Origin: a virus
Lineage: Duplodnaviria > Heunggongvirae > Uroviricota > Caudoviricetes
IMG/VR virus record: IMGVR_UViG_2547132252_000025
Length of the DNA stretch: 48,513 bases
Strand: one strand, 5' to 3'
Part shown: piece after piece, positions 15,001 to 18,000 of the stretch
Position numbering within the stretch: the first letter of the stretch is position 1
Layout of the letters: each line of letters begins with the position of its first letter
Position numbers: made by a program

Positions 15001-18000
15001 GGAGAGATCCGCGCCGGTCGGTTTCCCGGTTACGCCAACCCTGCACAGTTCACCACCAGACGATTGGCGTCGTCGGTGGTGAGTTATTAAGAAACCACCA
15101 GAGGGCGTCATTATGACAACTAAAATTTCTGTTGAAACTCTCTCCCCGATCACCCATAACCAGATTCCTGTTATTACCACCGAACTTTTGGCGCAGCTTT
15201 ACGGCACTGAGCCGGTGTGTATTCGCCAGAATCATCATGAGAACAAAGTACGCTTCGTTGAAGGGAAACACTTTTTCAAAGTTGTTGGTAATGACCTTAA
15301 AGAATTGCGGGTAGCTTTAAACTACTCACAAAATTTGCGGGTTACTTTAAGTAACTCACAAAATTTGCAACCATCTTTAAGAGGGTTACAAATTTCCCCG
15401 AAAGCCCGCTCCCTCATCCTCTGGACAGAACGCGGCGCAGCCCGTCACGCAAAAATGCTCGAAACCGATCGGGCGTGGGAAGTGTTCGAAAAACTGGAAG
15501 ACTGCTATTTCAGTCAAAAAATCCCAGAACAACTTCAGCTTCCAGAATCAACACTATCTATCAACTACCCTCTCTCGTGGTTTTCAGAGCATCACCCCTA
15601 CTCCATGATGAGCTATGTTGATCGAAAAACTCTTAACCTGGACGTTTCTGTGCTCTTCGATATGCCAAGCCCAACTATGCGCATCCTCAACGAGCTACAC
15701 AGCAAGGGCTATAACGTCGATGCAGCTGTCGCCGAATTTAACGCCTTCAAGCATCTGACGGAAGAAATGCGCCGTACTCTACAGGATATTTCAAGATTGT
15801 CAGATCGAAATTCCCGAAAAGGCTTCTCGTTAAGTCTTTAAAGAACAGATCGTTTGACAATGCTGCATTAACGGGGATATATTCCGCCTCATGGTGCTCA
15901 AAACACCTTAGCAAGTAGCGGTTACCGCGCCCGACAGACATGCGGTTTTTTTGTGTCCAGTCTTCTTGGTTTATGACCGGGCGTGCGGCTAATACAACAC
16001 CAGCAATGGGAATATGCCCGCCGACTACTTGCGGTTTTGAGCGCCCGGTCACCCTCTCAAAAGGGGTAAATCAAAATATCAAGTAGGACATAAAGCATGA
16101 AAACCATCTCCGTGGAGTCCCTCTCCATAATTTCATTTAGTAATATACCTGTGGTGACTACAGAGCTTCTTGCCAGCTTATATGGCACAGAACCAGATTA
16201 CATCCGAAAAAATTTCAATCGGAATTCTGGACGATTTGTTATCGGTAAGCACTACTTTTTACTTGAGAATGAGGAGTTGCGCGAATTTAAGCACAGCATG
16301 TCTTTAAGACCTTCTGTGAAAATCGCCCGTAACGTTCGCTCCCTCATCCTCTGGACAGAACGCGGCGCAGCCCGTCACGCAAAAATGCTCGAAACCGATC
16401 GGGCGTGGGAAGTGTTCGAAAAACTGGAAGACTGCTATTTCAGCCAGTGCGAGAAAAATACTGGCAAACAAGAGAAGAAGCTCAACGGGCTTTCCGCAAA
16501 AGAAACAGACAGCCTTGTATGGCTGTGGGATTATGCCAACCGCTCACAGGCATTGTTCCGTGAGTTGTATCCCGCATTAAAACTGATTCAGTCTGGCTAT
16601 TCCGGCATATGCCACGACTACGGCTATGAGTTCTCGTATATCATCGGGAGGGCGAGGGGCGTTTTAATTAATCACACGCGGGATATAGATATTTATGAGC
16701 CTGACGGGCCGACGAACCTTCTGGCATGGGAAAGGCTTAAGAACAAAGAGTTGCCGCCTTCACTGCATCGCTACTGACAATTGACAACTTAACAAACCCA
16801 GCTTCGGCTGGGTTTTTTATTGCTGAATTTTCAATGTGAGAGGACATGACAATGAATGAGCTGATAAATAGCAATGCCATCAAAATGACAAGCATTGAAA
16901 TCGCTGAGTTGGTGGGAAGCCAACACGGTAATGTCAGAATATCAATAGAACGTCTGGCAAAGCGTGGGGTGATTCAACTTCCTTCAATGCAAAAAGTTGA
17001 AAATAAACAAACAATTAGCCCTAACAAATTCACAAGCGTGTATATATTCGAAGGCGAACAAGGTAAGCGAGACAGCATTATTGTCGTCGCTCAGTTGTCG
17101 CCGGAATTCACCGCTCGCCTTGTTGACCGCTGGCGAGAACTCGAAGGGGCAACCGCGAAAATACCACAAACCTTTTCTGAGGCATTGCGCCTTGCGGCCG
17201 ACCTTGAAGACCAGAAGGCTGAACTGGAGAAACAGCTTGCTCTCGCAGCACCTAAAGTTGAGTTTGCCGATCGAGTTGGCGAGGCCAGCGGAATTTTGAT
17301 TGGAAACTTTGCAAAGGTTGTTGGTATTGGTCCAAACAAACGGTTTGCGTGGATGCGCGATCACAAAATCCTTATTGCTTCAGGTGCCCGGCGCAATGTG
17401 CCAATGCAGGAATATATGGATCGCGGCTATTTCACAGTGAAAGAAACAGCGGTCAATACAAATCACGGAATACAGATATCGTTCACCACAAAAATCACCG
17501 GGCGTGGTCAACAGTGGCTGACAAGAAAGCTGCTAGATAACGGAATGCTTAAAGTAACAGGGGAGGCTGCTTAATGGCTAAACCAGCGCGAAGGAAATGC
17601 AAAATCTGTAAGGAATGGTTTCACCCGGCATTCTCAAATCAGTGGTGGTGCAGCCCGGAACACGGAACTAAATTAGCACTCGAACGACGAAATAAAGAAC
17701 GCGAAAAGGCGGAAAAAACAGCAGAGAAGAAACGACGACGAGAGGAGCAGAAACAGAAAGATAAAATTAAGATTCGAAAACTCGCCTTAAAGCCCCGCAG
17801 TTACTGGATTAAACAAGCCCAACAAGCCGTAAACGCCTTCATCAGAGAAAGAGACCGCGACTTACCATGTATCTCGTGCGGAACGCTCACGTCTGCTCAG
17901 TGGGATGCCGGACATTACCGGACAACTGCTGCGGCGCCTCAACTCCGATTTGATGAACGCAATATTCACAAGCAATGCGTGGTGTGCAACCAACATAAAA

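Follow-up and report, generated by a model that had tools for sequence, protein, structure and literature searches.

A direct repeat in a Stx2c prophage as the probable shared 3′ module of two antirepressor-like cassettes

A 48,513-nt stretch of viral DNA (Caudoviricetes; IMG/VR record IMGVR_UViG_2547132252_000025), which we refer to as the window, was analysed for a long direct repeat that closes two genes of the antirepressor type, antB in the nin region and ant at the tail locus. Judged by its sequence, the window is a Stx2c prophage of the phage 2851/1717 type: its nin region is 99.9% identical to those of phage 2851, Nil2 and Stx2_EH1904, its stx2B is identical to the stx2cB of 2851, and its left end matches the sbcB-integrated prophage of O157:H7. 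The first cassette lies in the nin region with the replication genes on one side and Q on the other, and runs in the order promoter-like site, C4-like small RNA (sRNA), antB and putative terminator. The second is placed between the tail genes L and K and consists of a divergent mnt-like gene followed by an arc-like gene, ant and the same putative terminator (Table 1).

The two copies were compared by MAFFT alignment, repeat finding and base-by-base comparison in register, which gave a single ungapped direct repeat with both copies on the forward strand, offset by 27,342 bp and identical at 309 of 358 positions (86.3%). An earlier note, made from reading the sequence, had placed a ~355-bp direct repeat with an identical terminator at 16463..16821 and 43806-44161, and had stated that the 3′ end of the antirepressor gene at 16097-16777 recurs together with its terminator, in the same orientation, at the 3′ end of ant. 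The pairwise alignment that it called for bears out both statements, the coordinates being off by at most one base. Its figure of ~88 identical bp at the end also stands (89 of 89), while the 85-90% given for the rest was slightly optimistic, as the 5′ body of the repeat is identical at 220 of 269 positions (81.8%). What had been missed is the meaning of this gradient of identity, which probably marks a recombination or gene-conversion boundary and not uniform paralogy. Given the 18% divergence just upstream, a perfect run of 89 bp has a probability of P ~ 1.7e-8, and since repeat finding also gave no other dispersed repeat of comparable size in the window, the repeat is not due to chance.

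In content, the repeat comprises the final 104 codons of the two genes, coding for the P22_AR_C domain, followed by the stop codon, a spacer and the terminator-like hairpin; the correspondence to domain plus terminator follows from Pfam placing P22_AR_C at the C-terminal end of both AntB and Ant. The identical 89 bp hold the last 43 coding bases, a TGA stop, a 19-nt spacer and the hairpin CCCAGC-TTCG-GCTGGG with T6 behind it. Among the shared 104 residues 87 are identical between the copies, and the codon differences are divided into 22 synonymous and 17 non-synonymous ones, which argues that both copies have been maintained as coding sequence. The P22_AR_C domain is under purifying selection and both copies are intact. 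The hairpin itself has six G-C/C-G pairs, a UUCG loop and then U6 (-16.1 kcal/mol, z = -4.2), and the hairpin/T-run motif occurs exactly 2 times in the window against 0 expected. As predicted from these letters it fits the features of a Rho-independent terminator, namely a GC-rich hairpin and a U-run. Going by the biology of lambda, P22, P1 and phi24B, on which we base what is said here of terminator and Ant function, the terminator may insulate each cassette, so that lysogen transcription would be kept out of roi/ninG/Q and of K/I/J, and an N- or Q-modified polymerase would override it in lytic growth.

The two proteins differ in what precedes the shared part. AntB combines ORF6N (69.6 bits) with P22_AR_C (PF10548; 83.1 bits, cut-off 22.4), and as ORF6N stands where P22_AR_N would be, it falls outside the definition of a P22-type Ant (P22_AR_N plus P22_AR_C). 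The tail-locus Ant, in which P22_AR_N scores 135.4 bits and P22_AR_C 102.2 bits (cut-off 22.4), falls within it. In the tail-locus cassette the arc-like gene lies upstream of ant and is co-oriented with it, a divergent mnt-like repressor gene is present and the mnt/arc intergenic region has divergent promoter-like sites (42902-42953, with a consensus-like site of 10/12 at 42925-42953), where the counts of such sites equal the shuffled expectation. This arrangement of a P22_AR_N plus P22_AR_C ant with a small Arc-domain gene before it is that of P22 immI (mnt / arc-ant). It differs from P22 in that the cassette is placed between two tail genes of a lambda-like siphovirus, L and K (or, as in phage JLK-2012 and the sequence L070, see below, in the nin region), in that the sar antisense RNA has no Rfam match at the gathering score (GA) in 42300-44400, and in that repressor inactivation would be attributed to it by analogy only. 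Separately, a minus-strand hairpin with a 14-bp stem and a T-run was seen at the arc/ant junction (43133-43164, -), a position that recalls the P22 sar terminator.

The nin-region cassette resembles another known system. Its promoter-like site (15854-15883, 11/12 to the consensus; counts equal to the shuffled expectation) is followed by the C4-like sRNA, and a C4 RNA (RF01695; 66.7 bits, GA 45) lies at 14977-15060 before a second gene, antA (15113-15841), which has ORF6N only; the region 14875-15060 upstream of antA holds isrK-like and C4 RNA matches above the gathering score. As isrK, C4 and sRNA-Xcc1 matches just precede antA and antB, they suggest RNA control of these nin-region antirepressor-like genes of the P1-immI/Gifsy-IsrK kind. 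The likeness to P1/P7 immI, where the c4 antisense RNA controls icd-ant, is this C4-type RNA just upstream of both genes; the differences are that the proteins of the window are of the ORF6N type and not P1 Ant, and that the location is the lambdoid nin region. An analogy with Gifsy antirepressor genes in a tail operon was considered and dropped, since the paper puts the Gifsy genes 1.3 kb downstream of the replication genes. It may be added that antA and antB share a 127-nt segment, a second direct repeat, which in related phages stands before the P22_AR_C module in most alleles of the nin locus, and that phage 2851 has an IS629 between antA and antB.

Comparison with phage 2851 bears on how the identical tail arose. 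At the tail locus the window has 0 mismatches to 2851 over 42900-43849, 30 mismatches over 43850-44149 and near-identity from the hairpin on; 22 of the 30 mismatches fall in the last 100 nt, and 2851 has TAA in place of TGA and T5 in place of T6. The longest perfect run between the two copies of 2851 itself is 29 bp, against 89 bp in the window. Since the tail locus matches 2851 until 43849, then diverges and then matches again, the window lineage probably carries a replaced ant 3′ end, and the replaced tract ends exactly where the homology to the nin-locus genes ends. The tail-locus copy of the window carries a 3′ end typical of nin-locus genes in relatives, and its closest annotated orthologue, that of 2851, does not. 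The 89-bp identity would be the footprint of homologous exchange, whether by non-allelic gene conversion or with a lambdoid prophage resident in the same host. At the 3′ end of ant at the tail locus ~290 bp would thereby have been replaced, up to the terminator, where homology ends.

To place the repeat among related phages, the exact 43-nt 3′ end was used as the query for a scan of IMG/VR, which gave 113 loci, about 105 of them upstream of roi and 7 upstream of K. Their 358-bp segments reduce to 35 distinct sequences, which are a-type (like copy A), b-type (like copy B) or clean mosaics, and both types are found at both loci. The exact copy B sequence, for instance, was found 8 times upstream of roi and once upstream of K, and six K-locus loci, along with the K loci of two complete pig-strain genomes (L124 and L125), are a-type in their final 260-310 bp. 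Both copies occur together on one viral contig of 57.9 kb, identical at 350 of 358 positions with a perfect run of 188 bp. In related phages the module is found at both loci and follows at least 4 different N-terminal parts. In the pig E. coli prophages L124 and L125 the L-K slot has minus-strand genes for a ClpP-like protease and Arc, together with YlcI/YnfO and an antirepressor that differs in its N-terminal part, and this cassette too is closed by the P22_AR_C module and terminator. In L070 and in phage JLK-2012 (O55:H7 DEC5E; L126, 1615-3653) the whole mnt-arc-ant cassette is found in the nin locus upstream of roi, with its right joint within the repeat and its left joint at a 15-nt microhomology (GGATTATGCC[A/C]ACCG). 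The left joint (L070, 2791-2805) is a 15-nt near-identity between P22_AR_C coding sequence at 16529-16543 and 42509-42523 just after the L stop codon, and the JLK-2012-type cassette sits in a truncated ORF6N/P22_AR_C gene. Taken together, these alleles mark the module as a place where homologous exchange happens often, between the early and the late slot among others.

On this evidence we regard it as probable that the repeat is a shared module, P22_AR_C coding sequence plus Rho-independent terminator, that ends two independent antirepressor cassettes and has been homogenised at its 3′ end by recombination, and that it is not a dedicated element. The feature is lambdoid mosaicism of the ordinary kind, a product of the shuffling of modules and of gene conversion, in a phage family that has been much studied. 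A moron is a promoter-gene-terminator unit at a module boundary, and with moron cassettes and lambdoid mosaicism in general the repeat shares a constant 3′ module with terminator, interchangeable 5′ parts, alternative genomic slots and sharp breakpoints. Nothing fundamental differs from these; what is special here is the presence of two slots in direct orientation in one genome with evidence of exchange. Some points weigh against the shared-module explanation. The IMG/VR sample was picked by the exact a-type tail and is hence blind to other tails. The donor and the direction of the exchange are ones that we infer, and the b-type tail of 2851 could be the derived state; the mosaics, likewise, could stem from exchange between phages at the same locus and not between the two loci. 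Termination, expression of the cassettes and repressor binding by both proteins are here predictions from sequence, promoter-like calls come at chance frequency for the regions scanned, and a PDB sequence search with Ant and AntB matched no solved structure.

A different significance had been proposed in the earlier note, namely that recombination between the copies would delete ~27 kb including Q, the transfer RNA (tRNA) genes, stx2AB, the lysis genes and the head genes, as a possible route to stx-negative derivatives. The geometry is right (27,342 bp) and so are the genes listed, except that most tail genes and the arc/mnt regulators would also be lost. In full, the predicted loss takes in the genes downstream of antB (roi, ninG, pphA and Q), three tRNAs (19639-19879), stx2cAB, the lysis genes, terminase, portal, head and tail-shaft genes, the tape measure, M, L, mnt, arc and the 5′ part of ant, and the product would have an intact antB (or a hybrid) followed by K. 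RecA recombination has a minimum perfect match of ~25-30 bp, and 89 bp exceeds the RecA or Red minimum. The repeat has the properties of a deletion-prone one, direct orientation and a perfect run (89 bp) above the minimal efficient processing segment, and exo, bet and gam are among the genes of the prophage (open reading frames (ORFs) at 3916-5800; annotated in the orthologous prophage of strain NZRM3614). Relatives have longer identical runs, as in the contig with 188 bp, and the mosaic alleles show that the segment recombines. Even so, we think it unlikely that the repeat matters mainly as a RecA/Red crossover substrate, by which a precise 27.3-kb deletion (roi through 5′ ant) would give immune, non-lysing, stx-negative natural derivatives.

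The junction expected from such a deletion was not found in any finished genome. The junction query of 1,558 nt (15863-16820 joined to 44163-44762) matched 4,458 of 5,426 complete E. coli genomes in pieces, none over >61% of the query, and it was not found in 50,697 phage records, where partial matches were alike. A generalised junction (the nin-specific 127-nt segment, the repeat and K) gave in the complete E. coli genomes only ordinary tail-locus matches that start at the repeat. A nin-type 5′ part joined to K was seen in 0 of the 113 IMG/VR loci, a gapped anchor pattern gave no junction across IMG/VR, and among contigs encoding the exact AntB, roi lies downstream in each of the 33 that were read, with no K junction. 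In sum, none of three junction queries was found in the complete E. coli genomes, and the route proposed earlier has no junction to show in genomes, phage records or IMG/VR loci. The reciprocal junction (ant 5′ part, repeat, roi) occurs in three genomes, as the JLK-2012-type nin arrangement. Genes named 'P22AR C-terminal domain-containing protein' beside K in the pig strains were considered as deletion products and set aside, being ordinary L-K cassettes with another N-terminal part and other regulators.

The search of related genomes for the deleted form, which the earlier note had also suggested, thus yielded none, apart from two ambiguous metagenome contigs of a related phage that matched the gapped anchor pattern, L130 (2,953 nt, coverage 2.9) and L131 (1,131 nt, coverage 3.05). 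Both have the order ninB-dam-ninE, a nin-locus ant-like gene with a pure a-type repeat, the terminator and K, i.e. a nin-locus gene is joined to K by way of the repeat. Over the K part the contigs match, at 100% identity, K genes next to an ant that has a perfect run of 312 bp in common with the repeat of the contig, and the junction of the contigs is absent from the 5,426 complete E. coli genomes. A chimera is suspected because these are ~3x short-read contigs running through a >300-bp identical repeat, a setting that makes assemblers mis-join, and the 312-bp match to a tail-locus allele next to an identical K favours it. Both explanations are possible, an assembly artefact being more likely than a real deletion.

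The loss of stx that could be traced went another way. Stx-negative '1717-like' prophages at sbcB without a 29.2-kb fragment have been described (PMC8046923), and we mapped one stx-negative derivative of this prophage family, that of the stx-negative O157:H7 strain NZRM3614 (NZ_CP032793.1, 1959187-1986030). It corresponds to window 1-10512, then an insertion sequence (IS), IS1203, and then the window from 39531 onward, so that a single copy of IS1203 stands in place of 10513-39530. Lost with the deleted piece are O/P, the entire nin region with copy A, Q, stx2c, the lysis genes and the head genes, and M, L, mnt, arc, ant and K are retained intact, hence also the tail-locus copy. As the deletion is IS-associated and ends outside the ant repeat, it took a different route from the proposed crossover. 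IS629/IS1203-associated deletions of O157 Stx prophages give, as the crossover would, stx-negative remnants of the same sbcB prophage (NZRM3614; PMC8046923), and differ from it in their end points (10513 and 39530, with the IS at the joint). A 50-kb prophage indel by homologous recombination (PMC7645076) was considered as a parallel and rejected, since it concerns a compound Sp11/Sp12/stx2a prophage and has no link to ant. Deletion between the copies would be a possible by-product of the repeat and not its function.

Two further explanations concern the identical tail. One is that a functional constraint on the 3′ untranslated region, the terminator or an sRNA element keeps the 89 bp identical, with no recent recombination. 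The exact 43-nt 3′ end in 113 viral loci is in keeping with this, as is the conservation of the hairpin even in the divergent 2851 allele. Yet the 2851 orthologue differs from the identical tail at 21 of 89 positions, among them synonymous sites and positions in the stop codon and the spacer, with the gene still intact; for that reason the identity is not due to constraint. The identical stretch also has no Rfam match, and its 43 coding bases are without synonymous change against 18% divergence just upstream. Constraint is therefore rejected as the cause and we rate it as very improbable. That the identical tail arose as an artefact of assembly or consensus in this record, with two similar repeats collapsed, is the least credible of all: homopolymer-associated frameshifts elsewhere in the window (pphA at 18570, K at 44464) hint at imperfect sequence, but copy B recurs with its flanks at 100% identity in dozens of O157:H7 chromosomes that were finished independently (43 records at >=99%) and in the IMG/VR contig L029.

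For the function of the cassettes that share the module, a close comparison is the Ant of phi24B/933W-type phages (Fogg et al. 2011, PMC3064807), which is also an antirepressor before Q and whose last 104 residues are the conserved P22-like part; it is present there in one copy, and the window has the module twice, in an early and a late cassette. The phi24B Ant was found by experiment to boost late-gene expression after induction, and when ant is deleted, late expression from pR′ falls to about 27-56% of the wild-type level (PMC3064807). By analogy, the Ant proteins of the window may help to inactivate the repressor during induction.

Table 1. Features of the two cassettes and of the repeat they share (window coordinates; aa, amino acids)
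Feature	Position	Strand	Evidence
Repeat copy A (last 104 codons of antB, stop, spacer, putative terminator)	16463..16820	+	Alignment, Pfam
Repeat copy B (last 104 codons of tail-locus ant, stop, spacer, putative terminator)	43805..44162	+	Alignment, Pfam
89-bp 'a-tail', 100% identical to 44074-44162	16732..16820	+	Register comparison; its 43-nt 3′ part exact in 113 IMG/VR loci
89-bp stretch, 100% identical to 16732-16820; 21/89 differences from the orthologous stretch of phage 2851	44074..44162	+	Sequence comparison
Intrinsic-terminator-like hairpin + T6AT, ends antB cassette upstream of roi/ninG/Q	16797..16820	+	Folding, motif scan
Identical terminator-like hairpin, ends arc-ant cassette, 11 nt before K start codon	44139..44162	+	Register comparison, motif scan
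Tract where the window departs from the otherwise identical ant of 2851; putative recombination/conversion tract	43870..44156	+	Comparison with 2851; ends where nin-copy homology ends
antB, 226 aa: ORF6N (aa 10-97) + P22_AR_C (aa 127-198); same as antB of phages 2851 and Nil2	16097..16777	+	Pfam, sequence match
C4-like structured sRNA (Rfam sRNA-Xcc1 RF02221, 79.3 bits, GA 53), between promoter-like site and antB	15975..16058	+	Rfam
127-nt conserved ORF6N-domain end, also in antA 15390-15516 (94%)	16320..16446	+	Repeat finding; nin-locus-specific, just 5′ of the repeat in most alleles
roi (Rha + ANT/KilAC domains), right flank of copy A	16846..17574	+	Pfam
Tail-locus ant, 334 aa from ATG at 43115: P22_AR_N + P22_AR_C	43115..44119	+	Pfam
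arc-like gene, 57 aa, Arc domain 22.1 bits; directly upstream of ant and overlapping it	42952..43125	+	Domain search
mnt-like gene, 114 aa, Arc-like ribbon-helix-helix domain 72.9 bits, divergent	42524..42868	-	Domain search
Tail gene K (JAB + NlpC/P60 domains), right flank of copy B; split by 1-nt insertion at 44464 relative to 2851	44174..44912	+	Domains, comparison with 2851

Some other features of the window were recorded alongside. Compared with phage 2851, K carries an additional base behind a run of G6 (44464) and is read as two ORFs, and L (41754-42507) is likewise split into two by a divergent patch at 42145-42222 that amounts to a net insertion of 28 nt. The tail of the prophage may be defective, or these may be homopolymer errors in the record. 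In pphA/ninI (18176-18847) a run of A6, against A7 in phage 2851, at 18570 gives a frameshifted Ser/Thr phosphatase with a 157-aa ORF in place of 223 aa. The sRNA STnc100 has a strong Rfam match (158.5 bits) at 21290-21501, directly downstream of stx2B. In the head-gene region, a tandem 162-bp repeat in 3 overlapping copies (88-90%) at 34172-34777 lies within an 833-aa ORF (32646-35147) and probably represents repeated protein domains.

What is modestly new here is the evidence that the early and late antirepressor cassettes exchange sequence, and that the length of perfect identity between them depends on the lineage. A more far-reaching possibility, which we hold to be doubtful, is that recurrent conversion between the early and late cassettes creates lineage-specific perfect repeats (29 bp in 2851, 89 bp here and 188-312 bp in relatives) that leave some Stx/lambdoid prophages prone to a precise ~27-kb deletion, with Q, stx, lysis and morphogenesis lost and immunity kept, and that L130 and L131 are its first natural examples. 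As the perfect-identity length varies between lineages, from 29 to >300 bp, any risk of deletion would be specific to the lineage. With its length, the repeat can also cause short-read assemblies of Stx prophages to break or to be joined wrongly. A repeat that is conspicuous in a prophage of medical importance is thus probably explained as a shared domain-plus-terminator module, which matters little beyond bookkeeping.

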